Shown here piece by piece: positions 1 to 20,413 of a stretch of DNA of 20,659 nucleotides. Positions within the stretch are counted from its first letter, which is position 1, and each line of letters starts with the position of its first letter. The translations under genes and the position numbers were made by a program. Where the stretch lies: positions 1 through 20,659 of the IMG/VR virus record IMGVR_UViG_2778261527_000010; one strand, written 5' to 3'. Under the pieces are notes generated by a model. That model saw nothing but the letters and a program-made list of their open reading frames with translations, had not been told where the DNA came from and made no database searches. Source of the DNA: a virus. Its lineage: Duplodnaviria; Heunggongvirae; Uroviricota; Caudoviricetes.

Positions 1-19
1 ATGGTGCTCATAAATCTGG

Positions 20-25
20 TATACT
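20..25 (+). promoter_or_regulatory. putative -10 hexamer (tatact) of the ssrA promoter; -35 lies outside the window
   Basis: TATACT-like hexamer about 14 nt upstream of the tmRNA 5' end; position only, no -35 visible. Confidence 0.3.
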
Positions 26-39
26 TACCTTTACACATT

Positions 40-402
40 GGGGCTGATTCTGGATTCGACGGGATTTGCGAAACCCAAGGTGCATGCCGAGGGGCGGTTG
101 GCCTCGTAAAAAGCCGCAAAAAATAGTCGCAAACGACGAAAACTACGCTTTAGCAGCTTAATAACCTGCTTAGAGCCCTCTCTCCCTAGCCTCCGCTCTT
201 AGGACGGGGATCAAGAGAGGTCAAACCCAAAAGAGATCGCGTGGAAGCCCTGCCTGGGGTTGAAGCGTTAAAACTTAATCAGGCTAGTTTGTTAGTGGCG
301 TGTCCGTCCGCAGCTGGCAAGCGAATGTAAAGACTGACTAAGCATGTAGTACCGAGGATGTAGGAATTTCGGACGCGGGTTCAACTCCCGCCAGCTCCAC
401 CA
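40..402 (+). ncRNA. ssrA: tmRNA (SsrA), 363 nt
   Basis: Sequence ggggctgattctggattcgacggg...ccagctccacca matches E. coli tmRNA as I recall it; tag reading frame gcaaacgacgaaaactacgctttagcagcttaa (ANDENYALAA*) present; 3' CCA end at 400-402. Confidence 0.95.
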
Positions 403-403
403 A
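358..403 (+). repeat. attL core: 46-bp direct repeat covering the 3' end of ssrA
   Basis: atgtaggaatttcggacgcgggttcaactcccgccagctccaccaa repeated at 16279-16324 with one mismatch (g378 vs a16299). Confidence 0.85.
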
Positions 404-412
404 ATAAATCAA

Positions 413-444
413 GGGGTTACGTGAAAGCGTAGCCCTTTTTTCTT
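413..444 (+). terminator. rho-independent terminator just downstream of ssrA
   Basis: Stem ggggttacg / cgtagccc (one wobble) with loop tgaaag, followed by tttttcttt. Confidence 0.55.
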
Positions 445-510
445 TGGTAGTGGCGGCAAAACGGCGGCAGGCATTCAGTCAAGCCCAGTTGCTACTACAT
501 GCGATCGCAA

Positions 511-1284
511 TTACAACTTAAAGAGTTTCGCTTGCTCTGGATTAACAGCTTCGACGTAGTTTTTGACCCCTATTCTGTGCGGCTCATAATTGCTTGAATA
601 GAAATCAATCAGGAAGTCACTCATTTTCTGAGATGTGACTTTCATAACTCCCTTACTCAAAGTTAAATTAAACACGCTAATCTTTGACGATGGTGCCTGA
701 GTTTTACTCATGTTGGCTTGATAACCAGATTTACGCATTGCCACTAGTGCTTCGTCGTAAGCCGCTTGTAATTGGGCCAAATCGTTTGACGAGATGATCA
801 CATCATCCATAAACACACTTAGCTTGAGATCATGATGTTTGTTCAATCGGCGTAGTAAGCTACCAAAATAACTTTTATCTAAGCAGAGGGTTGCAAGTAT
901 TGGAGATTGAACAAAACCAAAAGGGAGGACATGCTTATGTGGACTATGGGACAAGTTTCTTACAGTTGAAAATGTTGAGATTTCCCGCGCTTGAGAATAG
1001 GTGAAGTAGCTCTTTAGATCACGGGTGATACGACTACGGCTCGTTGACTGAAAAAATTGTTTAATATCAACAACGGCAAAAAAATCACTTTTTAAGTGTA
1101 ATCTGGCAGCTTTAAGATGCCCACCAGTTCTTAGATGGTAAAAATAGAGTGGCGGAATCCACTTGTTTCTGACAGCCTGAAGTATCTTCCCTCCGACTTT
1201 ACGTGCCTCAACGCTTGGGACATAAACCCAAACCCCGGGCTTAATCTCAAATTTATCTTCCCACCTTTGAACTTCTATTGTCAT
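511..1284 (-). CDS. compact reverse transcriptase (257 aa), palm/finger domains only
   Basis: RT motifs in canonical order: motif A FFAVVDIKQFF, motif B' LPFGFVQSPILATL, motif C SVFMDDVII (F-x-D-D), K-T-containing domain 6; no thumb or effector extension; AT-richer than phage core. Confidence 0.8.
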   Translation of the reverse strand: MTIEVQRWEDKFEIKPGVWVYVPSVEARKVGGKILQAVRNKWIPPLYFYHLRTGGHLKAARLHLKSDFFAVVDIKQFFQSTSRSRITRDLKSYFTYSQAREISTFSTVRNLSHSPHKHVLPFGFVQSPILATLCLDKSYFGSLLRRLNKHHDLKLSVFMDDVIISSNDLAQLQAAYDEALVAMRKSGYQANMSKTQAPSSKISVFNLTLSKGVMKVTSQKMSDFLIDFYSSNYEPHRIGVKNYVEAVNPEQAKLFKL

Positions 1285-1441
1285 GAGTTAAATTGTTGTA
1301 GTTGAAGGCCATGTTAAGAACGGCGTAAACCGCACCAACTAAGCCAACAAACGCGGTTGCGCATTTGAGCATAGCGGTGATCAGTTCAACACGCGCCTTA
1401 ACTAAGCCAAGTTCGTTTGTATCCATAACTTGTTCCTCCAT
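1253..1441 (-). CDS. small predicted single-pass membrane protein (62 aa from ATG 1441; 57 aa from ATG 1426), 3' end overlaps the RT start by 32 nt
   Basis: Hydrophobic segment LITAMLKCATAFVGLVGAVYAVLNMAF; GGAGGA 7 nt upstream of the second ATG (1426); overlap suggests translational coupling with the RT. Confidence 0.5.
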   Translation of the reverse strand: MEEQVMDTNELGLVKARVELITAMLKCATAFVGLVGAVYAVLNMAFNYNNLTHDNRSSKVGR

Positions 1442-1687
1442 AGATACCTGACGTCTCTTAGCGCAAGCGCATGGCCCTAACTAAATAAAAAATAACAACC
1501 AGTTAGCCCAGAAAGCTTAACAAGTCGGCGTCCAATTACATGGCAATCAGGTAATCGGTCCGCAGTCGCAAAGCGACAAACTACATATCTACGGAGTGGG
1601 GATAAATCCCCGCTAACGTCAGGCATTGTTAATTTAACCTCAACTTATAGAAAAGTATAGTTTTAAATCATGTAGTTATGTCGCCAT
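1442..1687 (-). ncRNA. candidate structured noncoding RNA / leader upstream of the RT module (hypothetical, retron msr-msd-like)
   Basis: No ORF; perfect hairpins ggggataaatcccc (1598-1611), gtcgcaaagcgac (1565-1577), gcgcaagcgc (1461-1470); 8-bp inverted repeat cctgacgt/acgtcagg (1616-1623 vs 1447-1454) with TAGC + G-rich hairpin right after the upstream arm on the minus strand. Confidence 0.25.
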
Positions 1688-1906
1688 TTAAATCGGCAAA
1701 CCCACCTGTTTAAATTTATGAGGATGCGGCTGAACCGGATTTGACTCTTTTGGCGTTGCAATCGAACGAACAAAAGTTTCATGGGTAACAAAAGTATGGC
1801 TGCAGTTAATGTTCTGGCACTGGTTGTAACGCTCTTTGGTCAATGAAGATACCTGAAAACTGCTGCGAGTATGGGCGGCACTTCCACACAGTGGGCAAAT
1901 CATCAT
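1688..1906 (-). CDS. ogr: Ogr/Delta-family zinc-finger late-gene transcription activator (72 aa)
   Basis: MMICPLCGSAAHTRSS...YNQCQNINCSHTF with C-x2-C...C-x4-C spacing as in P2 Ogr; GGGGAGA RBS 9 nt before ATG at 1906; lies immediately after gene D as in P2. Confidence 0.85.
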   Translation of the reverse strand: MMICPLCGSAAHTRSSFQVSSLTKERYNQCQNINCSHTFVTHETFVRSIATPKESNPVQPHPHKFKQVGLPI

Positions 1907-1996
1907 TTTTCGAGTTCTCCCCATTTTTGCTAAATGCACAATAATGATATCGCATTATTCCATTTTTCAAACTTAAAAGTTCTCCATTGTGAAGAA

Positions 1997-3097
1997 TCAT
2001 TCCATTTCGAGATCATCAACCTTCACTTCAAGCTCAAGACTGGTCGTAAAACCGTTATCCGGGCTGACGGTATGTGTCAGGGTGGTAATGGTCCATTCCG
2101 CATCATCTATCGGCTGTTTAAAGCCACTGACTTTCACTGGCATTTCCGTGTAGAGATCTGCCCGCCCTTCCGCCAGTTGTAGCGAGAATGCCGCAACACC
2201 GCGTTGCAGACGTTCCCACTGCATTTTCGCCGCTCGTTCGGCGTTGCTCCGGTTGGCATAAGTGCGATTAAGTACCAGCACGTTTTCATCCGTACCCACC
2301 AGGTAATCGCCCTGCTTCGCTTCCGGCTCTTTCTTCTGCTTCTTAGTCCTGCGCTTACGCTTCACCATGGTGCTTTCTTTCTTCGCGGGTTCGCGGGTAT
2401 GCAACCAGCTGGCAATTACGCCCGTATAGGCTCCGCGATCTGCCAGGGTAAAGCGGTGACTGTCGCCGTCCTTACGCGTGATAGTGATCACCGGCAGTGG
2501 TTTACCGCTGGCGCTTTTGCCCTGTCCCTGCCGGATGAATAACAGATTGCCATTTTTCACCGACGCAATAGCACCGTACTGGCGCGCCAGCCGCATCAAA
2601 AAACTACCGTCACTCTCATTAGTCTGGTCTATATGCTCCACGGGCTTATCCGACAGGTCTTTACCCAGTGCCATCTTCAGCTTGTGACGTACGGCTATTT
2701 CCTTCACCACTTCCCCGACAGTGGTCTTGTGCCACGATTTTTCGCGGCGGGTATTCAGCGTTTCCCGAAAATCAGCACTTCGCGCCCGGATAGTCAGGCG
2801 GTCCGGTGCGCCAGTGTGTTCAATCTCGTCCACCGTGAATGCCCCTTTCGGGAAAAGCGGCTGCCCCTTCCACCCCAGCGCCAGCGTAATGACCGCACCA
2901 CGGCGCGGCAGCACTATTTTTCCGTCGGCGTCGTCCAGCTCCAGATCAAGCTGGTCTGCTTCAAAGCCCCGATTGTCCGTCAGCGTCAGACTCATCAGGC
3001 GGTTATCCAGCACAGTGGTGATATCCTTCCCCTCAATACTGATGCTGAATGCGGGAGTTTTGTTTCCTTTGTTAAGCAGTTCAGAGCTGAAATTCAC
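1997..3097 (-). CDS. D: P2 gpD-like tail protein (late control gene D)
   Basis: 366-aa translation matches gpD along its length (LTLTDNRGFEADQLDLEL, TIRARSADFRETLNTRRE, VKVSGFK, NGFTTSLELEV); ATGA overlap with the upstream U gene. Confidence 0.9.
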   Translation of the reverse strand: MNFSSELLNKGNKTPAFSISIEGKDITTVLDNRLMSLTLTDNRGFEADQLDLELDDADGKIVLPRRGAVITLALGWKGQPLFPKGAFTVDEIEHTGAPDRLTIRARSADFRETLNTRREKSWHKTTVGEVVKEIAVRHKLKMALGKDLSDKPVEHIDQTNESDGSFLMRLARQYGAIASVKNGNLLFIRQGQGKSASGKPLPVITITRKDGDSHRFTLADRGAYTGVIASWLHTREPAKKESTMVKRKRRTKKQKKEPEAKQGDYLVGTDENVLVLNRTYANRSNAERAAKMQWERLQRGVAAFSLQLAEGRADLYTEMPVKVSGFKQPIDDAEWTITTLTHTVSPDNGFTTSLELEVKVDDLEME

Positions 3098-3579
3098 GAC
3101 AGCAGCCCTCCCACCGTTTTACTGATATCGCTTAAGGCAGACGTTGTCGTATCCTGCAAATTATTCAGCTGCGCACTGAGATCACCGAACATATCGGACA
3201 GGGATTCATCCACCCGTTTGAGCGACAGGGTGAACTCAATCCGGCGCGGCATACCATCGCGGAAAAACTCCGTTTTAGTCTGATTCAGTCCCTCAATCAC
3301 ATACATGCCGTAAATCGTGCCGCTGCCTTCAATCAGGGGCCATGCTTTTCCCTGTTCTGCCATCTGCTCCAGAGCCAGCAACGACAGCCTGCCGCCCGTT
3401 ATCTCCGGCATAAGAACACCAGAAAGCGTCAGCATGTCGTTGTCTGGTCCCAGAAACTGCGTGGACGGACGTCGATTGACCCGGCTGTTTGCCGCATGTC
3501 GCCAGCTGCGTTGATACTGCAGTTCCTGATACGGCACAGTGCGCAGCATAAACACGTACAATCCCAGCACCATCATCAT
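3094..3579 (-). CDS. U: P2 gpU-like tail protein
   Basis: 161 aa, MMMVLGLYVFMLRTVPYQELQYQRSWRHA... matches gpU; overlapping start/stop with T fragment and D. Confidence 0.85.
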   Translation of the reverse strand: MMMVLGLYVFMLRTVPYQELQYQRSWRHAANSRVNRRPSTQFLGPDNDMLTLSGVLMPEITGGRLSLLALEQMAEQGKAWPLIEGSGTIYGMYVIEGLNQTKTEFFRDGMPRRIEFTLSLKRVDESLSDMFGDLSAQLNNLQDTTTSALSDISKTVGGLLS

Positions 3580-3995
3580 GCTTCGTATCCCCCCTGATCG
3601 CTGTAGTTACTCCTGGCTTTTGCCTTCAGCCTGCGTTCACGTTCATCAAGCTGGCGGGCCACCTCCCGCGCAATATCCTGCGCACTTTGTCCTGGCTGCG
3701 TCTGAATGATGATCTGCATCGGTGCCTCAATCCGTTGAACGGGCGGCACAGTGGCTGCACGACTCACCATCGCTTCGCCGCCTTTCGCGGGAAGTGCCAA
3801 AGAATGCAACGGTGGAAGCTCTGCAGGCGCGGCAGCAACGCCCATCATTCCGGCAACAACGGCAGCCAGTGCAGCTGTATTTCTCCGGCTGGTCACATTT
3901 GCCGGGCCGTTAACAATTTCCGGCCCGTTTTCACCGACGATGCCAAACTGCCCGCGCGGGATATAGCCGCCGCTGTCATACATCCCCGCAAAGCC
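3576..3995 (-). pseudogene. T: 3' fragment (~135 codons) of tail tape-measure gene (gpT-like); 5' part deleted
   Basis: C-terminal tape-measure-like sequence (GYGFAGMYDSGGYIPRGQFGIVGENGPE...) ending in-frame before U; reading frame runs into unrelated portal-gene sequence at ~3984-4003. Confidence 0.7.
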
Positions 3996-4003
3996 ATATC
4001 CCC

Positions 4004-4399
4004 ATGACCGATGCTGCGCAGAACCAGGAGGATGTGAACAACCTCCGCAATGCGATGAAAAGCGCCAAAGGTCCTGGTAACTTCCGTAACCTGTTTATGT
4101 ACTCGCCTAACGGTAAAAAGGACGGGCTTCAGATTATCCCGTTGTCAGAAGTGGCGGCGAAGGATGAGTTCCTGAATATCAAGAACGTGAGCCGGGACGA
4201 CATGATGGCGGCGCATCGTGTGCCGCCACAAATGATGGGGATAATGCCTAATAATGTCGGGGGGTTTGGGGATATCGAAAAGGCAAGCACAGTATTTGTA
4301 CGAAATGAGCTACTGCCTCTACAAAAAATGTTTCTAGAAATAAATAATTGGTTAAACGATAGAATTATAAATTTTTCAACCTACGAACTAAAAATTTAA
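4004..4399 (+). pseudogene. Q: 3' fragment of portal gene (gpQ-like); 5' part deleted
   Basis: Translation ...FRNLFMYSPNGKKDGLQIIPLSEVAAKDEFLNIKNVSRDDMMAAHRVPPQMMGIMPNNVGGFGDIEKA... resembles P2-family portal C-terminus; opposite strand to tail genes as in P2; last ~25 codons are AT-rich. Confidence 0.6.
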
Positions 4400-4415
4400 T
4401 TAAGATAATTTAGTC

Positions 4416-4433
4416 GGCCTCATTTCTGAGGCC
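4416..4433. terminator. bidirectional hairpin between convergent portal fragment and lmuB-like gene
   Basis: Perfect stem ggcctca / tgaggcc with 4-nt loop, flanked by A/T-rich sequence. Confidence 0.45.
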
Positions 4434-4439
4434 ATATTT

Positions 4440-6098
4440 TCATCTTGAAAGTATCACCCGTTCAAACAATGGCATTAATTGAGAATAAACATTATCATAA
4501 TGTTCATCATTTAAAAGATGATATTTATTTTCAAGTTTGATGCTATTAAAACCATCCATGAAACTCTCATAACCAACAGTTCCAATAATAATCTGATTTG
4601 TAAGGGAAAACCCATCCAAGCATAGTTTTATAAGCTTATGCGTATGCTCTGGATCCAAATCTTGTTGCTTTGGAGAGTCTATTACTATAGGCATATTCTC
4701 AACTGAAGAGTTGCTTTTCATAACACTAAGCAGCGCGTAGTGAAATGCAAATATACCTCGAGGACCTCGACTACCAGTCTTACCCTTAGTAATATTATTA
4801 TAACTACTAAGGCCACCTACCTTTGTATTTTCGACACCAAGCTCTTTAAGAGCTTTAGCGAAATACTCTTTGAAACAGTCATTTATTTTAACAGTTCTTT
4901 TCTTATCATTGTATACTTCTAATTCTTCTTGTAATTCTGTCAACTCGCCTTCTTTTCGACCAATCTCAACGAATAACTCATCTAACTGTGAAATAAAAGT
5001 AGATTCAATTTCATGGTATGCGGCAGATTTAATAACATCATGAAGCGTTATTTCCGATTGAGTTTCTAAAATCAGCGCCTGCAACGCCTCTGAAGCAGCC
5101 CTTGACTCTTCTAGCTTTTGATTCAATTTAGGAATATTTTCCTCAATCTTGCTTTTCTCATCTGCAAGAACAGCAATGTTTTTGAGCATTTCATCTCTAT
5201 GGTTTATATAATTATATTCATTTACTGAATAAGCAACATTATCATCTCGAAAATTCGAAATCTCAAATTCATTATCAATAATCGCAGTTATCTCTTTGAG
5301 TTCACTCTCAAGGAAATTCTTCCTAGAATATAACCTCAAAAGATTCAATCTATATTCTGTCTGAACTAAATTTAAATTAGAATATTCATTTAATATACGT
5401 TCCAACTTTGATTTATAAAAATCCAAATCAACATCAAATAAAACCACGCCAAAAGATTCATCAATCTTACTTTTGCTTCTTTTTAGAACCTTAACAAAAC
5501 CATCTAACTCTGAAATTTTAACTTTAATTTCTTTGATTTTCCCTTGAACTGTATAATATTCCTTTGGCTTAATTCCAGAGTGATAGTAAAGAATGTTTTT
5601 TTGCCATTCTGAGTACATACTCATGTTTTCGAAAGAATTTATCACCGCTTTCCATCCTTCATCCTGATCAATAAAGAATGGGGCAAACAAACAAGCAGGG
5701 TTTGCCTGAGTCGTAGCACCCGTATATTTATTATGTAATTCCAGTTTAAAACCAAATATATTTGAAACACGAGATGCTAATGACGAAATCGTGTTATACA
5801 CGACTAGATCATCATTCTTCAAATCAAAGACACCAATAATCTTTTTATAACGCAAAAAAATAAAATCATTTTCCCCGTTATTAATTTCCACCAGTGTAAC
5901 TATATCATCTGATTTCCAAGCATCATCAAGCCTTAAATCTCCACCTAATGTGTAATAAAGACTTTTAATCAGGCTTGATTTACCAACATCATTTGTACCA
6001 TATATGAAGTTAACCCCTTCTGAAAACTCATAAGAAAAAGCTTTTCTGTCTCTTAATGAGAGTATTTTTATATTTTTAAATTTAACGTTATTCTTCAT
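4440..6098 (-). CDS. SMC-like ABC ATPase, LmuB-like (DUF3732-type) component of a Lamassu-like defence system
   Basis: N-terminal Walker A GTNDVGKSS, long coiled-coil middle (E/K/L-rich), C-terminal IVIDSPKQQ resembling the D-Q-P Walker-B variant of LmuB; GAGGA RBS before ATG 6098; 11-nt overlap with upstream gene; AT-rich. Confidence 0.6.
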   Translation of the reverse strand: MKNNVKFKNIKILSLRDRKAFSYEFSEGVNFIYGTNDVGKSSLIKSLYYTLGGDLRLDDAWKSDDIVTLVEINNGENDFIFLRYKKIIGVFDLKNDDLVVYNTISSLASRVSNIFGFKLELHNKYTGATTQANPACLFAPFFIDQDEGWKAVINSFENMSMYSEWQKNILYYHSGIKPKEYYTVQGKIKEIKVKISELDGFVKVLKRSKSKIDESFGVVLFDVDLDFYKSKLERILNEYSNLNLVQTEYRLNLLRLYSRKNFLESELKEITAIIDNEFEISNFRDDNVAYSVNEYNYINHRDEMLKNIAVLADEKSKIEENIPKLNQKLEESRAASEALQALILETQSEITLHDVIKSAAYHEIESTFISQLDELFVEIGRKEGELTELQEELEVYNDKKRTVKINDCFKEYFAKALKELGVENTKVGGLSSYNNITKGKTGSRGPRGIFAFHYALLSVMKSNSSVENMPIVIDSPKQQDLDPEHTHKLIKLCLDGFSLTNQIIIGTVGYESFMDGFNSIKLENKYHLLNDEHYDNVYSQLMPLFERVILSR

Positions 6099-7167
6099 AA
6101 GAAACATCCTCAAAAGTCAACTTTATAATTGCATATATAGCAATCATAAATTTCTCTTCTTGATTTAATAAAGAGAAATCCCCGTCCCCCGCTGCAATTG
6201 TTTTTTCGAGTGTAAAGAAGAGGTCTCGAACAGGTATCTCACGATAATGCTCTATACTCTTTAGAGCCGATTGAAATTCCAGAAAATAAAGATAGTATAT
6301 TGAATTGACATTGAGCACTTTTATTGATATGCGTGTAAAAACTGATTGTAATTTAATCCCCTCATAAGGATCTGAGAAAGTACCAAGCAACATACAAACC
6401 TGTTCCCATTTTGGCGTTATTTTTATGCTTGCAATGAGTCCAGATAATAAATCAGTTACAAATTCTGAAGATATACCTTTCTTTAGTACTAAATCTTCAA
6501 AAGTTTTGATATCACTAGAAGCAACACTAACCTTCTCATTACACTTATTGATTAATAATTTAGTGAATGCTGTTGAATTAATACCATGATCATCCCCAAA
6601 GTAAGAATTCAAAAAAACTGCAACTTTCCCGTATAAATGTGAGTTAGGATCTAACAAACTAAGATCAGATGTTTTAAATTTTATTTTATCAAGAGGAACT
6701 TCTTTTTTAGTATTTAGCTGCTCTTGAACCTTACTAATTATAATTTCCTTATGCTCATTATTAAGATCACTACCTTTTTCGTTATTATCATTTAAGAAAT
6801 CGAATCCAGCATTCGATAACAGAACCATATAAATTTCGTGACCAACGAATTGATAGAAATGGTCATATAGTTTTGCAACAAATGATTTAGGTTTAGCTTT
6901 TGTTGCGTTCACTATTGCTGCGAGTGTCCATTTACCATCTTTTTTTGTTTTAACTTGGATAAACTCAGCACTAGTCGGAGAAACAGATGAATTCAATACA
7001 AGAATATCGTCATGATATTCAAATAGAAATAAATATTTCTCCTTTTCTTTTTGTTTCTCAAGTAAATAATTTATCCCCCAAGAGGCTTGATATGAAAAGC
7101 CTCTCAACGCGTTTTCACCGCCCCGTTCGGCTTGATTTACTGTAATTAACGCATCTGATAACGCCAC
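6088..7167 (-). CDS. LmuA-like effector with N-terminal Cap4/DUF4297-type PD-(D/E)xK-like nuclease region
   Basis: N-terminus GFSYQASWGINYLLE...EYHDDILVLN...FIQVKTKK resembles the DUF4297 D...QxK core; GTG start, in-frame stop two codons upstream; AT-rich; sits at the P2 old/tin position. Confidence 0.5.
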   Translation of the reverse strand: MALSDALITVNQAERGGENALRGFSYQASWGINYLLEKQKEKEKYLFLFEYHDDILVLNSSVSPTSAEFIQVKTKKDGKWTLAAIVNATKAKPKSFVAKLYDHFYQFVGHEIYMVLLSNAGFDFLNDNNEKGSDLNNEHKEIIISKVQEQLNTKKEVPLDKIKFKTSDLSLLDPNSHLYGKVAVFLNSYFGDDHGINSTAFTKLLINKCNEKVSVASSDIKTFEDLVLKKGISSEFVTDLLSGLIASIKITPKWEQVCMLLGTFSDPYEGIKLQSVFTRISIKVLNVNSIYYLYFLEFQSALKSIEHYREIPVRDLFFTLEKTIAAGDGDFSLLNQEEKFMIAIYAIIKLTFEDVSYEE

Positions 7168-7310
7168 TCTATATATCCCTATTGTACTGCTTTTTTTTGA
7201 TACAAATTACCTTAGCTTCACCATCAAGTCCACAGATTCATGGCTAAGCGCGCGCTCGTATCCCCGCCACGCCTGCCCGCTTTATGTAGTGGTTTTCATG
7301 CACCTGCATG

Positions 7311-7342
7311 ATCTACGCAAAAGCCCACCAGTTCTGGCGGGC
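7311..7342 (-). terminator. rho-independent terminator after the tum/DinI-like operon
   Basis: Minus-strand stem gcccgccag / ctggtgggc (one mismatch) followed by ttttgcg. Confidence 0.45.
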
Positions 7343-7477
7343 CTTAGCAAAAACGATCCTCAAACGATCATGCGATCTCATGCGGCATAGACATGCACTA
7401 CAGAGCTAACGCCTCGCAAGGGCTCGTTGTTCAACCTTGCTGACGCCAGAAACAAGTTCAGACGCCAGCAACGTTTC

Positions 7478-7711
7478 TTAATGCAGCCAGCTGTCGTCTT
7501 CCCACACCTTCTGCATAATTTTCATCACTTGCTTCCTTTCTTCGTCCAGTTGCAGTCCGGTCAGTTCCACACCGTTAGAGCTACCTTTGCGGATACGAAT
7601 TACCGTTTTGGGATACAGGGGGTGCAGATTACGGTAAAGCTCGGATTCAAGGGCGTCCAGGGTCGACTGGCTAATCTTCTGCTCTTTATCGATCATTATT
7701 TCAATGCGCAT
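7478..7711 (-). CDS. DinI-family protein (186 Tum C-terminal-domain-like)
   Basis: MRIEIMIDK...LDALESEL...IRIRKGSSNGVELTGL...KQVMKIMQKVWEDDSW parallels E. coli DinI; AGGTGA RBS 6 nt before ATG 7711. Confidence 0.75.
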   Translation of the reverse strand: MRIEIMIDKEQKISQSTLDALESELYRNLHPLYPKTVIRIRKGSSNGVELTGLQLDEERKQVMKIMQKVWEDDSWLH

Positions 7712-7721
7712 AAAAGTCACC

Positions 7722-7910
7722 TCAGCTGATGACATCCATTGAGCGGTTGTATTCGTGGCTTCTGATTTTTGCCATGAGTTCATCAGTCAATTCAGAAACC
7801 CACTGCAGAGCCAGTCCCTTCTCTTCATCACTACACTCACTGGCCGCTACAAGCTTAAGAAAAAAATCAATGCGCTGGAGCTTCAAAGACTCCAAAAAAT
7901 AGTCCTGCAT
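7722..7910 (-). CDS. small protein (62 aa), first gene of the LexA-controlled operon; possibly the N-terminal part of a split tum
   Basis: AGGAGG RBS 4 nt before ATG 7910; ends 10 nt before the DinI-like start; a frame open upstream of the DinI start overlaps it. Confidence 0.5.
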   Translation of the reverse strand: MQDYFLESLKLQRIDFFLKLVAASECSDEEKGLALQWVSELTDELMAKIRSHEYNRSMDVIS

Positions 7911-7951
7911 CTTTCCTCCTATGACACCACACGCAATACTGTATGTATAAC

Positions 7952-7971
7952 CACTGTTTATAATTACAGTA
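7952..7971. promoter_or_regulatory. LexA (SOS) box upstream of the tum-like operon
   Basis: cACTGTttataattACAGta: perfect CTGT-N8-ACAG with AT-rich spacer; a second half-match (tactgtatgtataacc) lies adjacent at 7937-7953. Confidence 0.7.
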
Positions 7972-8063
7972 TATAATAATATTACTGATGTAAAACGTTT
8001 TTTTACGTTTATCAGCCTGATATGCCTGGTATTATTAAGAGCACGAATGGTTAACCATCGTAA

Positions 8064-10478
8064 TTAATACAGGTTTCGCCACTTATCATCTTCCTGCAAA
8101 CGCTGGTTCCGATAGAAGATACGCAGGCCTGCTCCTGACGGAATACTGCCGCCGCGAAGGAGTAAATCGACCTCTTTCTCGCTACCATCAAACCCTCTGG
8201 ACTTCAGCTCATACTCGAGCTGCTGTCGCTGATGGTCTGTAATTCGCTGTTTGTAGTCTTTACGCCGTTTCGGTTTAACCAGGTGTAACCTTGCTGCCAG
8301 TTCCCGGCGTTCTTTTTTGCTCATACTGTGCAGGTAATCGTGCAACTCCTTGTCATCCATGCGGGTGATATCCGTTCTGGTATCCCCATCAGCTGATTTG
8401 TCTTTCCCTTGTTGGTTCAAATTTTCAGCAAGGGGACAGTTATTGCCACGAGTCCAAGGGGCGCAAGCGCCCTGGTCGGCTGCCGCCTCCTGAACGTCAA
8501 CGGCTTTACGAACCATTTTCCACTTCACTGCATGAGTGCAGATCTTGCCCTCTGCAATGGGTGACCAGATGCCATAAATACGAATGCCGTGATCGCCATA
8601 GGCGGTCGGCTCTTCGTTGATTTCATAAGCGGTTCTGATGAGGTGATATTTACGGGGAACCAGTACGCCGCCCTGCTTCATGATGTAGGTGGCAAAACAA
8701 CCAGCATCAGCAGCAGCCAGGATGGCATCAAGGCGCGGGTTATCCAGTACCGGCGCACCTGCTTTTTTGTCCCCCTGTTGCCTTGCCGCCTGACCAGCCA
8801 GCAATCGCAGTTCACGGTAAGCCTGACGCCCCGGAATGCCAAAGAAGCGGAATTGCTGAACACGATGCAAAGACGCCCAGGCATTCACGTATTCAGCGTT
8901 ATCACGCAGAGATTTACCCGTTTCCTTGCTGATCTCGCCAGCCAGACCACGCCCGTCAATGTTCTTACTGATGTATTTCGCTATGTAGCTTGTCGGCGTT
9001 CCTTTGCGCGGGTTAATCAGCTCAGACTTAAAGCGCGGCCCCGTGTTATTGCCCAGCTCCTCGCGGTCTTCACGGATAGCAAACTTACGCAACAATGCAG
9101 TAATGGCTCGGCGGTCTTTTTTGCGCATGAAACACAACAGGTGCCAGTGAACTGTGCCGTCGTGATGCGGCTCAGCCACCCGCACGCCATACCAGCGCAA
9201 CCCGGCTTTGTGCATCGCCTTACGAAATGCAGCAAACATACCGACCAGATAATCGCTGCTTTGTCTTACCGTCGCATTTGTCCAGGTCGGGTTGGGCCTG
9301 CCGTTATTTAGCGTGGAATGGAAACGTGACGGACAGGTGATGGTGTAGAAAACGGCGCAGTCACCGCGCATTTCCGCGATAAGCTCCAGACCTTTAACAC
9401 AGGCCATCATCTCATTGCGGCGATGCGCAGGGTTGCTGCTGCTGGCGTTTACCACATCCTCCATGTCCAGCGTGTCGCCGTCTTCGTTCACCAGTTCATG
9501 AGAACGGAAAAACTCCAGCGACTTACGGCGCTGCTCACGTTTATGCAACACGGCTTCATAGCTGACATAGGGAGATGCTTTTTTGCTGACAAGGCAGACA
9601 GCACGCAACTGCTCTTCCCGCCATTCGCAACGCATCTTCCATAATTTCCGATACCACCAGTCGGCGCACAACATACGCGCCAGCGAACCCGGAATGAGTT
9701 CATAGGGCACGGGTTTACGGCGGTTTCTTTTCCGACGGAGTTGCTCAAACGCAGGCGGGATGACATCCAGACGCAGGGTTTCCGCTGCCACCCTTTCCCA
9801 TGTCTTGCGGATTTCTTCTGGCTTAACGTCATCGGTGGCATACAAATCGCCACAAGCGGCATCAAGGCACATACTCATATGCGCAGCTACCAGGGTGGAC
9901 AGGCGTTTCACCTGATCCTGACTCATTTCAGGCAGGATCAGCAGGCCGTCCAGCCCTTCATGGCTTGCCATAAAGCGAAAAGATGCAGATAGCTGACTGT
10001 CGCGTACATGCTCCAGTCGTTCCAGACATGGCTTAATCGTCTCACGTAAATAGCGGGAATAAGCCTTTGGCCTGCCCAGGCTGCTGAAGTATTCAATACG
10101 TTGCATCAGCGGCTTGCTGATATGGGAAGGCTGGGCGTTGACGTCCGCCAGAATGACCATATCCGGATTAAAACACTGCTGCTCATGCGCCAGCTTTGCC
10201 CGACTAATGAGCTTATCCTGTTCCATTTCGCGCTGGACAGGATCACGGGATTCATTAAAGAAATAACGCTCCCAGACCTGATCACTCAGCGCCTCACGGC
10301 GCAGCTGTTCCTGCTCGTTATCGGCAGCGTACAGAGTGATCAGGTTTGAAAGCGTAGAAACCGGCGCAACTTCCGCCGGGTCCAGATAAGGGTTAATGGC
10401 CTTTTTCGGGCTGTTCCATGAGAACGATGCGGCAGCTTCGTTAAAGCCGCAGCAGTTGTTCATATCGGCATGACTCAT
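8064..10478 (-). CDS. A: P2 gpA-like rolling-circle replication initiator endonuclease (804 aa)
   Basis: Active-site tyrosine motif [13 protein letters not shown] and metal-binding [15 protein letters not shown] as in P2 A; ATGA overlap with upstream dam-like gene. Confidence 0.9.
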
Positions 10479-11332
10479 GCACGTACTCCGTACACGGCAG
10501 AACTATCCACGCCACGCGAATAATCAAATCCCACCCAGCAGCGCGGCCCAGAAACAGCAATGATTTCTGTTGCTGATTTACCCTCGCCAGCTGCCACACC
10601 GATGCTGCGTTTTGCCTTGATGTAGTGGTGAGTAAAATTGCGATACAGCGAACGGATCAGGGATGTGTCACTGTTAGAAACAATGACCGGATGTCCTTCT
10701 GATGACCGATGTTCAAGAACAGATGCCAGGTGATACTGGTCATCTTCAGTGAAGCCGTCAGTGTGATAGCCGGAAAACGTACCGTCATACGGCGGATCGC
10801 AATACACCACATCCCCCGCCTTCAACATCGCCAGCGTTTCATCAAAGCTGGCGCAGATAAACGTTGCTCGCTGGGCCTTTTCTGCAAATGCGCGAATTTC
10901 TTTTTCAGGGAAATACGGATTTTTATAATTACCGTAGGGAATGTTGAAATGCCCGCTCTTGTTATAGCGACATAAACCACGGTAACCGTGACGATTGAGA
11001 TACAGGAAATATACCGCTTTCATGAAATCAGTAATTTCAGTTGAGTAATTAAACTCCTGCCTTATGTTGTAATAAGCCACCTCCCTGTTTGCGATCTCAA
11101 ATAAAACTCTGGCGCGAGATATAAACGATTCACAATCAGCGGCAACCTTTTTATAGAGGTTGATTAAATCAGGATTAATATCCGCAACCAGATAGCTGGG
11201 ATAATCCGTCTCCATCATCACAGCACAGGAACCCGCGAAAGGTTCAACCAGTCGCGGGCCAGCAGGAAGATGTTTTTTCAGTTCGGACATTATGGCAGTT
11301 TTATTTCCCGCCCATTTCAGGATGGTGCTCAT
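10475..11332 (-). CDS. Dam-like N6-adenine DNA methyltransferase (285 aa)
   Basis: ILKWAGNK and [10 protein letters not shown] (AdoMet-binding), DPPY catalytic motif; GGAGGT RBS 5 nt before ATG 11332; ATGA overlaps with both neighbours. Confidence 0.8.
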
Positions 11333-11556
11333 ACAGCACCTCCGTTGTAATGTTTGCCTTTCAGCTCTGCGATTTCCTGACAGGTAATGCAAAGCTGCAC
11401 ACCCGGAATGGCACGGCGGCGTGCTGGCGGAATTGGCGCTTCACACTCAATGCAAAGCACGCGTGACACGCCCGGTGTTTTGGCACGGGCTGCACGGATA
11501 TGGCGCTGGCGTTCTTCTTCAACGCGCTGCTGTACGAGATCCATTGCATCAGCCAT
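11329..11556 (-). CDS. TraR/DksA-family C4 zinc-finger protein
   Basis: C-x2-C...C-x2-C (CIECEAPIPPARRRAIPGVQLCITCQ); start overlaps stop of upstream ORF (TAATG). Confidence 0.7.
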   Translation of the reverse strand: MADAMDLVQQRVEEERQRHIRAARAKTPGVSRVLCIECEAPIPPARRRAIPGVQLCITCQEIAELKGKHYNGGAV

Positions 11557-11789
11557 TAGTGGATCTCCTGCGCTTCGTTCTGGATTGCTTCAGCAGTCAC
11601 ACGCAGCAGTTCTGCTGCTTCGACGTGGTTTAGCTGGCAGATTGTGATATGACACGCTAGGCTATCAAGGCGGGCAGCCATTGCCTCAGCCCTTGCCCGG
11701 CGTTCTTCCAGACGAGCCTCTGTCAGTAAAATATTAAGCCCTGCGTCATCCGGTCTGGTTTTGGTCGAGAGGGTTTCAATATTACGCAT
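11556..11789 (-). CDS. hypothetical phage early protein (77 aa)
   Basis: AGGAGA RBS 7 nt upstream of ATG 11789; coupled to the TraR-like gene. Confidence 0.45.
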   Translation of the reverse strand: MRNIETLSTKTRPDDAGLNILLTEARLEERRARAEAMAARLDSLACHITICQLNHVEAAELLRVTAEAIQNEAQEIH

Positions 11790-11856
11790 AATCAATTCTC
11801 CTGAATTTAGATAAAGGGATGCACGGCGGGTTTACGCCATTAATTTCATTAGTTGC

Positions 11857-12198
11857 TTAATTCGGCATGGTTAGCCGTCTGGGAAATAAGCTCACCACTG
11901 CACGAAAATGATTCATTGCTTTAATCAACTCCCGCTTTTCGTCAGTGGTCAGCTCATTAATGCTGATGCTATGACGTTCAGCTGGAATTTTTGCCATAAA
12001 GAATATGGCAGCCAGTGCCCGTTTATTTTGTTCATTATTGATATCCCGTGGATCACGCATATCTTTAATAAACCGCTCAAGCTCTGACTCAATATTCAAA
12101 CCAAAAACTTTCGCCCTTAACTCCGCAATATGATTAAGTCCATTCAGGCGTTCACCGGGTCTTAATGGAACAGTCGCCGCAGCGCCTTCAATAGCCAT
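11857..12198 (-). CDS. hypothetical phage early protein (113 aa)
   Basis: GGGGGA RBS 6 nt before ATG 12198; in the 186 fil/dhr-equivalent position. Confidence 0.5.
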   Translation of the reverse strand: MAIEGAAATVPLRPGERLNGLNHIAELRAKVFGLNIESELERFIKDMRDPRDINNEQNKRALAAIFFMAKIPAERHSISINELTTDEKRELIKAMNHFRAVVSLFPRRLTMPN

Positions 12199-12362
12199 TT
12201 GTTCCCCCGTTTTTTCGTAGATAGTTCTGCCAGCAATTCATCTTGTGAACGGCACGGATGCCAGCGTTTACCATCCTCACCCATGATCCAGCCGTGACCG
12301 TAGTGCATTGCCGGACTTTGTTTTACCAGCAGCGATGCAAATGATGGTTCTTTCGTCAGCAT
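12162..12362 (-). CDS. hypothetical small protein (66 aa)
   Basis: AGGTG RBS before ATG 12362; 37-nt overlap with the downstream gene. Confidence 0.35.
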   Translation of the reverse strand: MLTKEPSFASLLVKQSPAMHYGHGWIMGEDGKRWHPCRSQDELLAELSTKKRGNKWLLKALRRLFH

Positions 12363-12369
12363 AAGCACC

Positions 12370-12879
12370 TCACAGCAAACCGAATGAAGCACCGAGGCCA
12401 GTTACAGTATCAACTGCACTTGCCATCGCAGGATTAACCTGTAAACGGGCCTGCAATGAAACAGCAGCTAACGCCATCAGTCGTGTAACAGAGTTAATGC
12501 TGCTGATAGCATCACGACGACCTGCACTGGTTTTTACATCGCCAGATACCGCACCTGCAGCAACACGCCCGATCTCTGCGGTTGCACTCATGACGTAATG
12601 TGGCAGTTTCTCTTTTGCCACCTCATTAATCGGTACACATGGCAGGCAGTGAATCTGTGCCAGAAAACCGTCTACCAGCGTTGAATCTTCCGTCAGATCG
12701 GTAAGTAGCCAGATATCTGGCGCATTGAGCTGATGCGGTTGATCTGGGTTGAGTTTGTTTCGCAGAGTCTGGACATTCATTCCTGCACGTTCTGCCAGCT
12801 TCGCCATATTGTGACGAAGTGCAAAAGCTCTACAGGCTTCATCAAAATGCGGGTGTTTGGAAATCTTATAATCAAACAT
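12370..12879 (-). CDS. cII: phage 186 CII-like transcriptional activator (169 aa)
   Basis: MFDYKISKHPHFDEACRAFALRHNMAKLAERAGMNVQTLRNKLNPDQPHQ... HTH protein matching 186 CII in length and sequence as I recall it. Confidence 0.85.
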   Translation of the reverse strand: MFDYKISKHPHFDEACRAFALRHNMAKLAERAGMNVQTLRNKLNPDQPHQLNAPDIWLLTDLTEDSTLVDGFLAQIHCLPCVPINEVAKEKLPHYVMSATAEIGRVAAGAVSGDVKTSAGRRDAISSINSVTRLMALAAVSLQARLQVNPAMASAVDTVTGLGASFGLL

Positions 12880-12911
12880 GCTACCCCCTTAGAAAGTTCT
12901 CATAATTGAAC

Positions 12912-13154
12912 TTACTTACCAACAATGACGCGGAAGTTGGAATGACCGAGGGATTCACGGACCTGATCGGTTTTGTACATTAAATAACGCAGGCTTACGC
13001 GGCCTTTGTTTTTTTCTTTCTTGACCATGTATTTAGCAAGCTGACCATGGTGAATTTTTTGATACACAGAGCCGCGGGAGATACCTTCCCATTCCGCGAA
13101 CTCTGCAGGCGTAGCCATCTCTTTTGGTACACGAATTGAAATATCAGTGCTCAT
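12912..13154 (-). CDS. apl: Apl/Cox-like small HTH excisionase/regulator (80 aa)
   Basis: First gene of the lytic operon, divergent from cI; HTH-like EFAEWEGISRGSVYQKIHHGQL; GGGAGA RBS. Confidence 0.6.
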   Translation of the reverse strand: MSTDISIRVPKEMATPAEFAEWEGISRGSVYQKIHHGQLAKYMVKKEKNKGRVSLRYLMYKTDQVRESLGHSNFRVIVGK

Positions 13155-13210
13155 AGTGCAGTATCTCCCGATTAAGGTTTGGTTTACGTCGTTTTATCTC
13201 GTTTTACTTG

Positions 13211-13259
13211 ATTCAATATTTGATACATCGAGATACTACGATCCAATATTTGATACGTC
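13211..13259. repeat. two direct repeats (caatatttgatac, 13214-13226 and 13244-13256; 17/19 identity when extended) in the immunity switch region; candidate operator sites
   Basis: Identical 13-mers 30 bp apart; one lies between -35 and -10 of the lytic promoter, the other just downstream of its predicted start. Confidence 0.45.
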
Positions 13260-13261
13260 AA
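13233..13261 (-). promoter_or_regulatory. pR-like lytic promoter for apl-cII operon
   Basis: Minus strand TTGACG-17 nt-TAGTAT; correctly placed upstream of apl. Confidence 0.55.
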
Positions 13262-13273
13262 CAGGATTAAAAA

Positions 13274-13906
13274 ATGATACAGGTAAAGGTTGGAGAGAAT
13301 ACAGGGGGAAGAGAGGCTATCCATAGACTAATGGCAGCCTATGATTTCAAGTCCAGACAGCAACTTTGCGATCACTTAGGCGCATCAAAAAGCACCATGG
13401 CAAACAGATACTTAAGAGATAGTTTTCCTGCAGAGTGGGTGATTCAGTGCGCCTTGGAAACAGGAGTTTCTTTATTGTGGCTAACCACCGGACAGGGGGA
13501 GCCAGGTCCAAACATTGAACCTAAAAAAAATATCAATTCCGTGAACTCCAGCAAGGTTGTACCTCTTTCTGAACTAGTATCTCCTGAAATTGACAAGGCG
13601 ACTCTCAACGGTGGTTTATTGGTCGATGCTGGAAAAGCAATCATTGATAGCAGCATACTCCCCTCAGACTCAAGCAACCTACTGCTGGTGACTACTTCTG
13701 GTGATTCTTATTTAATAGATCGCAACCAAACACCACCAGTAAATGGTATGTGGTTAGTCGATATCGACGGGATAAAAAGCATCGTTAAATTGACTCGACT
13801 CCCGGGAAACAAATTAGTAGTGCATCAGGATGATTCATCGTTTGAGTGCGGTCTGGATGACATTGAGGTAGTAGGCCGCGCACTGAAAATCATTAAGAGC
13901 CTTTGA
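13274..13906 (+). CDS. cI: CI-like immunity repressor (210 aa)
   Basis: N-terminal HTH (SRQQLCDHLGASKSTMANRYLR); divergent from apl; immediately upstream of int as in 186. Confidence 0.75.
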   Translation: MIQVKVGENTGGREAIHRLMAAYDFKSRQQLCDHLGASKSTMANRYLRDSFPAEWVIQCALETGVSLLWLTTGQGEPGPNIEPKKNINSVNSSKVVPLSELVSPEIDKATLNGGLLVDAGKAIIDSSILPSDSSNLLLVTTSGDSYLIDRNQTPPVNGMWLVDIDGIKSIVKLTRLPGNKLVVHQDDSSFECGLDDIEVVGRALKIIKSL

Positions 13907-13907
13907 T

Positions 13908-16278: not shown

Positions 16279-16324
16279 ATGTAGGAATTTCGGACGCGAG
16301 TTCAACTCCCGCCAGCTCCACCAA
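16279..16324 (+). repeat. attR core: second copy of the 46-bp ssrA 3'-end repeat (one mismatch)
   Basis: atgtaggaatttcggacgcgagttcaactcccgccagctccaccaa; the mismatch would break a T-arm base pair, consistent with the displaced non-functional copy. Confidence 0.85.
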
Positions 16325-16480: not shown

Positions 16481-16557
16481 TCCCTTAAGTTCCTAGCCGC
16501 TTATCTATAACTATGGAAAAATGTTAACCCTGACTGTATGTTAACAAAGGGATGTAT

Positions 16558-19594: not shown

Positions 19595-20413
<819 letters not shown>

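Follow-up and report, generated by a model that had tools for sequence, protein, structure and literature searches.

The 20,659-nucleotide stretch of DNA analysed here (the window) contains a P2/186-type (Peduoviridae) prophage in the 3′ end of ssrA of E. coli, and this element is a defective derivative rather than a functional phage. The late region was very probably lost in a single microhomology-mediated deletion of ~19.4 kb, which left the 3′ ends of tape-measure gene T and portal gene Q joined to each other. The position at which the deletion ended within T was probably not chosen at random, because other, independent deletions end in the same 14-nt zone.

Retained backbone of the element

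Assignment to the P2-like phages (Peduoviridae) rests on nucleotide homology that runs collinear with complete members to the left and to the right of the junction, and the hallmarks of the family (ogr, D, U, gpA, a P2-type cos and an att-adjacent integrase) are all present according to Pfam matches, the cos alignment and the att repeats. Two att repeats, at 358–403 and 16279–16324, bound a remnant of 15.9 kb. The features are as follows.

40–402, plus strand: ssrA (tmRNA), the integration target, whose 3′ end is the att core (ARAGORN; tag peptide ANDENYALAA)
358–403: att repeat, left copy (46-nt direct repeat, 45/46 identical to its partner at 16279–16324)
511–1284, minus strand: cargo locus 1, reverse transcriptase of 257 aa between ogr and att (Pfam RVT_1, PADLOC RT_VI)
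1688–1906, minus strand: ogr/delta-type late-gene activator (Pfam Ogr_Delta)
1997–3097, minus strand: tail gene D, full length, 366 aa (Pfam Phage_GPD; equal in length to the intact-phage protein, 362/366 residues identical)
3094–3579, minus strand: tail gene U, full length, 161 aa (Pfam Phage_P2_GpU; 159/161 residues identical to intact phage)
3576–4008, minus strand: 3′ fragment of tape-measure gene T, residues 883–1025 of 1025 plus stop and 1 extra nt (PHROG matches; collinear with intact T to 4008)
3995–4008: zone in which seven independent E. coli deletions end on their T side (mapped to the nucleotide on the intact T gene)
4003–4008: deletion junction, 6-bp microhomology CATGAC common to the T and Q sides (three-way alignment with Kp4845-2 and VG888)
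4003–4399, plus strand: 3′ fragment of portal gene Q, residues 213–343 of 343 plus stop (phrog_68, Pfam Phage_portal, P2 gpQ alignment)
4416–4433, plus strand: hairpin resembling a terminator after Q, where P2 has tQ (terminator scan; P2 tQ annotation)
4440–7167, minus strand: cargo locus 2, Lamassu genes LmuB (4440–6098) and LmuA (6088–7167; Cap4-type nuclease), between Q and cos (PADLOC, Pfam Cap4_nuclease)
7255–7273, minus strand: retained cos cohesive-end sequence GGCGTGGCGGGGATACGAG (59-nt local alignment to the annotated cos of phage P2)
8064–10478, minus strand: replication gene A, intact, 804 aa (Pfam Phage_GPA, E=1e-127)
13274–14924, plus strand: 186-type CI repressor (13274–13906) and integrase (13908–14924) (Pfam Phage_CI_repr, Int_N, Phage_integrase)
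14929–16164, plus strand: cargo locus 3, protein of 411 aa between int and att (phrog_7835, unknown function, only)

Every retained gene has the length that it has in intact phages, and a homologue of the ori nick site is situated within the gpA gene of the remnant. A full set of P2 genes for morphogenesis and lysis (Q P O N M L X Y K ... V W J I H G FI FII E T) is absent between the att repeats. Besides U and D, all that is left of the P2 morphogenetic set is Q codons 213–343 and T codons 883–1025, with 26 genes missing. The element is likewise no R-type tailocin, since the sheath, tube, baseplate, fibre and lysis genes all lie within the deleted interval.

The T and Q fragments and their junction

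On the minus strand, the segment 3576–4007 corresponds to the C-terminal end of PHROG tape-measure families (phrog_5690, E=1e-46; phrog_28, E=4.5e-12) and is 96–97% identical at the nucleotide level to annotated tail tape measure protein genes. On the plus strand, 4004–4399 matches positions 211–340 of 344 of portal phrog_68 (E=1.5e-62), is 56% identical to residues 211–339 of P2 gpQ, and is 100% identical to residues 213–343 of the intact portal protein of E. coli VG888-46E9. The two fragments are joined head-to-head at CATGAC, and the portal ORF opens with the ATG of internal codon Met213, located inside the microhomology. Apart from this 6-bp overlap the partner flanks are unrelated, as expected of a microhomology-mediated (illegitimate) deletion; alignment and a repeat search found no IS element, att-like site or longer repeat at the junction.

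The first-pass annotation had read the two frames as T and Q fragments beside intact minus-strand D and U genes, and both readings agree with the PHROG and Pfam matches, the intact-gene alignments and the lengths of D and U (366 and 161 aa, as in intact phage). Its statement that the fragments lack start contexts of their own also stands: no sigma-70-like promoter was found near the junction and no Shine-Dalgarno sequence upstream of the ATG at 4004. It was right that a 3′ fragment of T is retained, but the ~135 codons it counted are in fact 143, the 135-codon ORF beginning at the first internal Met. The junction, which it had placed at 3984–4003, lies 5–20 nt further right at 4003–4008, the sequence 3984–4008 still being T; the microhomology it had suggested looking for at 3984–4003 does exist, but at the corrected location.

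Extent of the deletion and intact relatives

Compared with intact relatives, 19.35–19.37 kb is absent, comprising 26 whole genes and the 5′ parts of Q and T (Q codons 1–212; the genes for terminase, capsid, lysis and most of the tail; and T codons 1–882). Against Klebsiella phage Kp4845-2 (OK490395; 35,561 bp), window 405–4011 is 97.3% and 4003–14906 is 96.0% identical, with 19,374 bp of the phage missing between the two arms. The same arms share 93.9% and 97.0% identity with the ssrA prophage of E. coli VG888-46E9 (NZ_CP128581), and 19,348 bp (26 annotated genes and two gene parts) is missing between them; the arm alignments to the two relatives cover 3.6 kb and 10.9 kb. Both relatives resemble the remnant in backbone, Lamassu cargo, CI repressor and integrase, and the VG888-46E9 prophage shares its ssrA integration site as well; they differ from it in having kept the full 19.4-kb late region, and VG888 has other genes at the ogr-att and int-att cargo positions. 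No single intact parent more than 99% identical to both arms was present in the collections searched. Because the left arm is nearer to Kp4845-2 and the right arm nearer to VG888, the parent was a mosaic from outside these collections.

These comparisons uphold the earlier proposal that the 5′ part of Q, the capsid, lysis and most tail genes and the 5′ part of T had been removed, and show that one deletion accounts for the loss. The intact version at ssrA that was to be sought in other strains exists, in E. coli VG888-46E9. The view that the prophage is morphogenetically dead is also sustained, no morphogenetic module being found elsewhere between the two att repeats.

Probable origin of the junction

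In the scenario that we consider very probable, a RecA-independent, microhomology-mediated deletion would have removed ~19.4 kb in one event. A break in T (coding strand ...TTTTCC|GTCATG|GGGATATGG...) would have been fused to a break in Q (...ATCG|GTCATG|TACATG...) through the hexamer GTCATG common to both (CATGAC on the window's plus strand), bringing the gene ends head-to-head. Judging from the sequence, the joining could have occurred by end-joining after a break or by template switching at a collapsed fork. All late operon promoters were lost, together with the terminase, capsid, lysis, baseplate, fibre, sheath and tube genes; with these gone, the remnant is unable to lyse the cell or build particles, and U, D and the T and Q fragments have become promoterless passengers. 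The remnant may still be able to excise and replicate, but would not propagate independently.

Other origins were considered. It is hardly credible that the junction is an assembly chimera. Six of the eight contigs with the 131-aa portal fragment do begin exactly at 4002–4004, a branch in the assembly graph, but the junction is read through in NCBI assembly GCA_904809585.1 (100% identical to window 1–14399) and identically in the Logan assemblies of ERR3372528 and ERR3062200, and a 6-bp overlap is unable to make a k=31 chimera; since several independent assemblies span the junction, it is no artefact. A second scenario is that two P2-like prophages integrated at ssrA in tandem or in succession and a deletion then occurred between them, so that RT-ogr-D-U-T′ and Q′-Lamassu...int never belonged to one genome. 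The differing closest relatives of the arms (left, 97.3% to Kp4845-2 and 93.9% to VG888; right, 96.0% and 97.0%) would fit such a history, but P2-like phages are normally mosaic in this way, and both arms are found in single 35-kb genomes, ordered and oriented as expected. The att repeats form one pair only, with no extra att copy and no second integrase of the same type between them. We regard this scenario as very unlikely, and loss of the late genes by a non-homologous deletion would stand regardless.

It is also possible to imagine the element as a functional, helper-dependent mini-P2, similar to a satellite, that excises, replicates, is packaged by a co-infecting P2-like phage and so spreads its defence cargo. 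In its favour, cos is retained and the int, CI, gpA and ogr genes are intact, a dimer of the 15.9-kb element (31.8 kb) nears the size of a P2-type genome, and remnants built in a similar way, with different integrases and cargo, occupy a second att site. However, any deletion that stays within the late region produces such features automatically. The junctions of the similar remnants differ, which points to independent deletions and not to the spread of one lineage; among complete genomes, every junction type appears clonal; and the close relative L044 is also without cos. P4-type satellites and the remnant are both small and integrated, with a P2-compatible cos, their own integrase, an Ogr/Delta-family late activator and a defence hotspot, and the remnant has the helper-compatible cos without structural genes that marks P4-like satellites. 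Yet the P4-type hijacking genes (alpha primase-helicase, sid, psu and epsilon) gave no family match among the ORFs scanned or those with precomputed Pfam matches, and the remnant, in contrast to P4, would replicate by P2's own gpA-type genes and derives from a phage by deletion rather than from a separate lineage. A functional mini-P2 is thus improbable, and a single deletion within one prophage remains our preferred explanation.

Cargo genes and the question of selection

The element is a dead prophage of the ordinary sort, in which anti-phage genes have been kept. Its Lamassu system consists of the LmuA effector and the SMC-like ATPase LmuB in a single operon (PADLOC E=4e-143 and E=9e-254, respectively). 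With regard to LmuC, the ORF list has no third ORF of at least 100 aa at 4400–7250 and the precomputed gene calls have none. The same Lamassu genes are present in the intact VG888 prophage and in Kp4845-2. At the position of the reverse transcriptase VG888 has an unrelated 160-aa ORF, and at that of the 411-aa protein, which has no Pfam or PADLOC match, it has an anti-phage dCTP deaminase.

It had been suggested initially that the genes kept are precisely those for regulation and replication together with the cargo, a pattern expected if the cargo is under selection. The premise is not literally correct, ogr, D, U and the T and Q fragments also being left, and the retention pattern does not support selection on the cargo. 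The cargo genes are no better preserved than the useless D and U genes and the two fragments, so that there is no differential decay to read. The selection reading is weakened further by L044, whose T arm is 99.7% identical: its deletion runs from the same T site and removed the Lamassu genes, cos and dinI as well. The remnant thus adds one more well-resolved case of a temperate phage turned into a fixed, harmless carrier of defence genes, here Lamassu, a reverse transcriptase and a 411-aa unknown protein within an ssrA defence island; its value is for annotation, and it is no surprise.

A recurrent endpoint in gene T

The recurrence of the T-side end means that a single random illegitimate event is not the full explanation. 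Independent deletions of this kind number eight (seven in E. coli, one in Salmonella), and each has a different partner site. In coordinates of the VG888 locus (L016), the E. coli partners are in Q (20318 and 20424), terminase gene P (21736), 12 nt past the gpA stop (16270), the lysozyme gene (26549), codon 12 of gpV (28772) and T itself (39185). The eighth junction, T|P, is in a Fels-2-like remnant of Salmonella, with its T end at the place equivalent to the E. coli zone. Microhomologies at the seven zone-ending deletions other than the window's are 1–8 nt.

The shared endpoint suggests a locally fragile or cleaved site, and we consider it nearly an even question whether the 14-nt zone (3995–4008; coding strand GTCATGGGGATATG), at the start of the conserved C-terminal T module, is a site-specific deletion hot spot. 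A corresponding mechanism, which we hold to be a serious though somewhat doubtful possibility, is that a site-specific lesion (a nick, double-strand break or replication-fork barrier) at 3995–4008 starts the deletions, with resection and chance microhomology setting the far end. One candidate agent would be phage terminase acting on a cos-like sequence that starts at the edge of the zone. Besides the eight independent junctions at one place with all partners different, it can be argued for this mechanism that the same protein searches gave only ~18 other junction types over the other ~275 codons surveyed, and that the right edge of the zone starts GGCTTTGCGGGGAT, which matches the lineage's cos end GGCGTGGCGGGGAT at 12/14 bases, on the same strand as the true cos, and is tied for the best secondary cos match across the 33-kb prophage.

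Several observations weigh on the other side. The events came from searches seeded with this T fragment, and distinct junctions elsewhere may collapse into one generic ORF, so that the background rate is underestimated. Records of partial cover per 300-nt window in complete E. coli genomes are similar in number around the site (20, of which 17 are one clone), upstream (30) and downstream (11). Folding energies at the zone do not differ from those of shuffled sequences (z-scores −0.9 and −0.7), which led us to reject a hairpin or other unusual DNA structure; the idea of a gpA pseudo-origin was likewise dropped, the zone having no similarity to the ori nick site and the true ori homologue lying inside gpA. 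Inspection by eye revealed no Chi site in the flanks, and no EcoRII site (CCWGG), GATC or invertase crossover-like site at the zone. The Salmonella allele retains just GCGGGGAT of the cos-like motif, and retained T runs 0–13 nt past the predicted cos-type nick. No partner end lies at the true cos (about 17050 in L016), which also speaks against recombination between cos and a pseudo-cos.

Exact-pattern scans for the junction, or for any non-T continuation after ...CCATATCCCCATG, produced no new junction types. GTDB species-representative genomes gave 0 matches and then 12, all by chance, JGI metagenomes gave 11 (10 chance matches, the other being an intact T gene that carries a SNP), and the single match in IMG/VR was an APEC-type remnant. 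A control search with 135 upstream residues gave no zone-ending junction, as expected for so few events. One further candidate, P0008/L050, was excluded, as it proved to be an intact T gene that lacks 1 nt in a contig of 1.3x coverage. The deletions appear one-sided, but this is meaningless: the search was limited to events keeping the T 3′ end, and the other side has only 3.6 kb of dispensable DNA.

If the zone is a hot spot, lineage after lineage in E. coli and Salmonella would have shed its late genes through the same site in T. A defined lesion (nick, cut or fork barrier) would be implied, with terminase on the adjacent cos-like GGCTTTGCGGGGAT as one candidate, and prophage inactivation would be partly predetermined rather than random decay. 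This would provide a testable handle on the disarming of prophages and would explain the commonness of ogr-D-U-T′ stubs among P2 remnants. We found no relevant description in the literature of a deletion hot spot in the P2 T gene. Deletion hot spots at sites of replication arrest or cleavage, e.g., Ter sites and the nick sites of rolling-circle origins, have reportedly been studied by Bierne, Michel and Ehrlich. The T zone is similar to these in that one end is fixed within a few nucleotides and the other is variable, with 1–8 nt microhomologies at the joints; it differs in that no arrest site, nickase site, stable DNA structure or similarity to the gpA ori was found.

Related remnants

A P2-like remnant at ybjL/rcdA in E. 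coli APEC O78 (NC_020163, annotated with a partial tape measure and a partial portal gene) and 16 other complete genomes shares the layout ogr-D-U-T′|Q′-cargo-...-gpA...int, with its T-side end 2 nt from that of the window. Its att site and integrase are different, as is its cargo, a TIR-domain protein. Its Q-side end lies 108 nt farther upstream than that of the window and is joined through a microhomology of 2 nt, and the Q fragments of the two elements are only 86% identical. These differences indicate an independent deletion. We also considered whether the window junction arose from an APEC-type junction through a second, 108-nt CATG..CATG deletion. This would need the same positional coincidence as an independent origin, and the window's T fragment resembles the APEC allele (421/431) no more than it does intact phages (424–425/431); the derivation was dropped when further junctions with unrelated partners were found. 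The APEC-type junction sequence is identical in the 17 genomes, which are mostly from poultry.

Defective P2-like prophages with conserved defence genes have already been described as ‘uncharacteristic genomic regions’ with P2 markers (Nucleic Acids Res 2026, PMC13586616), and a cos-proximal defence hotspot between gpA and gpQ is established for P2-like phages (Rousset et al. 2022, PMC9122126). The Lamassu cargo of the remnant sits exactly in this hotspot. Like the elements of that class, the remnant has a P2-type backbone, has lost mobility or structural functions, and carries gpA-gpQ defence genes near-identical to those of intact phages. Whereas the class was described statistically, the event is resolved here to the nucleotide, as a single 19.4-kb deletion with a 6-bp microhomology, and the remaining genes show no decay. 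Finally, the 150 nt around cos are conserved yet unannotated in Fels-2, RE2010 and others.

Structure of the deletion

The element is integrated at the ssrA (tmRNA) gene, and the stretch between two copies of the ssrA 3′ end, the second a 46-nt copy at 16279-16324, is 15.9 kb. The host is Escherichia coli: contig CAJGEL010000023.1 (GCA_904809585.1) is 100% identical to window 1-14399 and the ORF of the tape-measure fragment is listed at NCBI as an E. coli protein. Gene content was read from Pfam, PHROG and PADLOC together with precomputed annotations:

40-402, ssrA (tmRNA; ARAGORN)
511-1284 (-), reverse transcriptase
1688-1906 (-), ogr
1997-3097 (-), tail gene D
3094-3579 (-), tail gene U
4440-6098 (-), Lamassu LmuB
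6088-7167 (-), Lamassu LmuA
between the Lamassu pair and gpA, dinI-like gene
8064-10478 (-), gpA
between gpA and CI: dam, traR-like, fil, cII and an apl-like gene
13274-13906, 186-type CI
13908-14924, integrase
14929-16164 (+), protein of 411 aa, function unknown
17800-19275 (-), outside the prophage, Dcm-type methylase, intact
19640-20413, outside the prophage, PD-T4-3 defence gene

Between U and the Lamassu pair lie two gene fragments. The frame at 3576-4007 (-) aligns with tape-measure families in PHROG at their C-terminal end and is directly upstream of U, as the tape-measure gene T is placed in annotated relatives. The ORF at 4004-4399 (+) matches portal families at profile positions 211-340 of 344, P2 gpQ residues 211-339 and, with 100% identity, portal residues 213-343 of the intact prophage of E. 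coli VG888-46E9. These matches bear out the first-pass annotation, which had taken the two frames for 3′ fragments of T and of the portal gene Q (T′ and Q′). It had also held that both lack start contexts of their own, and a scan around the fragments found no promoter-like site or ribosome-binding site serving either; the ATG at 4004, which falls within the microhomology at the joint, encodes Met213 of the portal.

The breakpoints were mapped by alignment to intact P2-like genomes. Megablast against phage records gave left-arm matches that end at 4007-4011 and right-arm matches that begin at 4003. Both arms are present in one genome, that of Klebsiella phage Kp4845-2 (35,561 bp), in which window 405-4011 aligns to 35561-31955 and window 4003-14906 to 12589-1681; 19,374 bp of this phage are absent from the window. 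In a three-way alignment, T-side identity extends up to 4008 and Q-side identity starts at 4003, and the joint is therefore the common hexamer CATGAC (4003-4008). The switch from T to Q proposed earlier is real, but its position, 3984-4003, was not correct: 3984-4008 is still T, and 143 T codons are kept rather than about 135.

An intact version at ssrA was sought and found in VG888-46E9, where a complete prophage lies between ssrA and the downstream island and shares the Lamassu genes, the CI and the integrase. Its arms are 93.9% and 97.0% identical to those of the window, from which 19,348 bp are absent. According to the RefSeq annotation of VG888-46E9, the missing DNA comprises 26 whole genes together with Q codons 1-212 and T codons 1-882. 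Lost are head and packaging genes (both terminase subunits, scaffold, capsid, head completion), lysis genes (holin, lysozyme, LysA/B/C), and tail and other genes (R, S, V, W, J, I, fibre genes, invertase, sheath, tube, E/E′). The comparison confirms the predicted removal of the 5′ part of Q, the capsid, lysis and most tail genes, and the 5′ part of T. D and U, described as intact, are full length, and all retained genes have the same length as in the intact sibling.

The junction is real, because one NCBI assembly and independent Logan assemblies read through it identically and a 6-bp overlap cannot yield a de Bruijn chimera; an assembly artefact was rejected on these grounds. Apart from the small correction to the breakpoint, the earlier observation and its main interpretation hold, although the inference of selection does not: the element is a cleanly resolved defective P2-like prophage carrying defence cargo, which is a known kind.

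Among contigs that carry the 131-aa portal fragment (loci L008-L013), six of eight begin exactly at window 4002-4004, and one starts ACATGACC, with the intact-portal base at 4002. Such starts suggest an assembly-graph branch at the junction, and point to the coexistence of intact and deleted forms (or of two left neighbours) in these samples.

Cargo and residual functions

The lineage's cos is retained at 7255-7273 (-), with a 59-nt stretch that aligns to the annotated P2 cos and a cohesive-end sequence of GGCGTGGCGGGGATACGAG. Whereas phage P2 has old and tin on the gpA side of cos, the cargo here is placed between cos and Q (4440-7273), inside the gpA-gpQ hotspot of P2-like phages (Rousset et al., PMC9122126).

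The slot between ogr and att, 511-1441 (-), holds the short 257-aa reverse transcriptase, for which RT_VI is the best PADLOC model, along with a small ORF that overlaps it. As the intact E. coli sibling carries an unrelated ORF of 160 aa in this slot, it is a second variable cargo position. The 411-aa protein between int and att has no Pfam or PADLOC match, only phrog_7835 (unknown function). It is a candidate uncharacterised defence gene, since the same slot in the sibling prophage holds an anti-phage dCTP deaminase.

The first-pass annotation read the retention of regulatory, replication and cargo genes as the pattern that selection for the cargo would be expected to produce. Selection cannot be shown from these data, because there is no differential decay (D and U, now useless, are as intact as the cargo), and every single deletion that stays inside the late block leaves the same gene set. 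In the closely related locus L044, whose T arm is 99.7% and gpA side 100% identical to the window, the deletion starts at the same T site, ends 12 nt beyond the gpA stop and takes out Q′, cos, dinI and the two Lamassu genes. This relative also counts against a strong version of the selection claim. That defective P2-like elements often hold near-identical defence genes has already been published (PMC13586616).

From its gene content, the remnant can presumably still be repressed and may excise and replicate, and would be unable to lyse the cell or make particles. By the P2 annotation, the late promoters that drove U, D, T′ and Q′ are gone.

A defence island occupies the ssrA locus. Just outside the prophage, an EcoRII-type restriction gene is probably inactivated, since it is split into an N-terminal (16552-17295) and a C-terminal (17508-17765) ORF. 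The intact Dcm-type methylase and the PD-T4-3 defence gene are its neighbours.

A recurrent deletion end in the tape-measure gene

The recurrent T-side breakpoint is the sole element that might repay further work. A junction-region search of complete E. coli genomes found, in 17 of them (APEC O78 and relatives), a P2-like remnant that differs from the ssrA element in its att (ybjL/rcdA), integrase and cargo (TIR-domain); the T-side end of its T′-Q′ joint is 2 nt from the window's, and the Q-side end 108 nt further upstream. In a third remnant (strain ZH177), both ends are unrelated. Truncated T products were also sought in a large protein collection, the encoding DNA and the complete genome of strain E92 were added, and every junction was placed on intact T by alignment. 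Eight independent deletions share one short zone as the start of their remaining T sequence; the T start of the seven E. coli deletions lies within 14 nt, at 39661-39674 of the VG888-46E9 locus (L016), which is window 4008-3995. The Salmonella deletion ends at the equivalent place; its T allele is 73% identical, and T homology begins 16 nt before the equivalent Met codon. Partner ends span from inside T to beyond gpA. Besides the window, loci for the zone are L005, L044, L045, L046, L048, L049 and L051.

Deletions ending in the T zone: partner end (L016 coordinate); microhomology. L044, L045, L046/L047 and L049 are loci of P2-like prophages.
This window: Q (20318); 6 nt
APEC type: Q (20424); 2 nt
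L044: just past gpA (16270); 1 nt
L046/L047: terminase P (21736); 3 nt
Strain E92: gpV codon 12 (28772); 3 nt
L045: inside T (39185); 2 nt
L049: lysozyme (26549); 2 nt
Salmonella Fels-2-like remnant beside bapA: terminase P; 8 nt

In the same two protein searches, about 18 further junction types turned up over the remaining ~275 codons covered, including a looser cluster near RIEAPTQIIIQTQPGQ. The clustering at the zone is striking, but hot-spot sampling is biased: the searches were seeded with the window's T fragment, the truncated-T matches are all ≤236 aa, apparently through a length cap, and distinct junctions elsewhere in T can merge into one generic ORF. Complete genomes with partial cover of a 300-nt window numbered 20 for the site-centred window (17 being one clone), 30 upstream and 11 downstream; given these similar counts, truncations elsewhere in T are therefore not rare. 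What stands out as unusual is the number of independent events inside 14 nt. The apparent one-sidedness of the deletions can be discounted, given that the other side offers only 3.6 kb of dispensable DNA. We consider the chances that the recurrent end reflects a real site-specific process to be about evenly balanced.

The zone has no unusual DNA structure, no similarity to the gpA nick site and, by eye, no Chi, GATC or CCWGG site. One lead to the cause of the clustered ends is a cos-like 14-mer: the zone's right edge begins GGCTTTGCGGGGAT, which matches the lineage's cos end at 12/14 positions on the same strand and ties for the best secondary cos-end match in the 33-kb prophage. However, the Salmonella allele retains only GCGGGGAT, the kept T sequence extends as much as 13 nt beyond the predicted nick, and none of the partner ends is at cos. 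From the K-12 map, we take both att sites to place the prophage with replication forks running from int to ogr. In the model proposed on this basis, the unreplicated T′-U-D-ogr side would stay fixed at a nick or barrier in the zone, and the replicated side would be open to resection.

Some T alleles (Enterobacter and E. coli proteins P0012, P0026, P0031 and P0039) carry two or three tandem copies of the C-terminal module; because the module begins at FAGMYD, the tandem-copy boundary coincides with the deletion zone. Locus L045 (Logan SRR12904586) is a P2-like prophage at ybjL with several separate internal deletions, giving scaffold O-L, fibre-sheath and tube-T fusions and one inside T; it exemplifies decay in steps, unlike the window with its single clean deletion.
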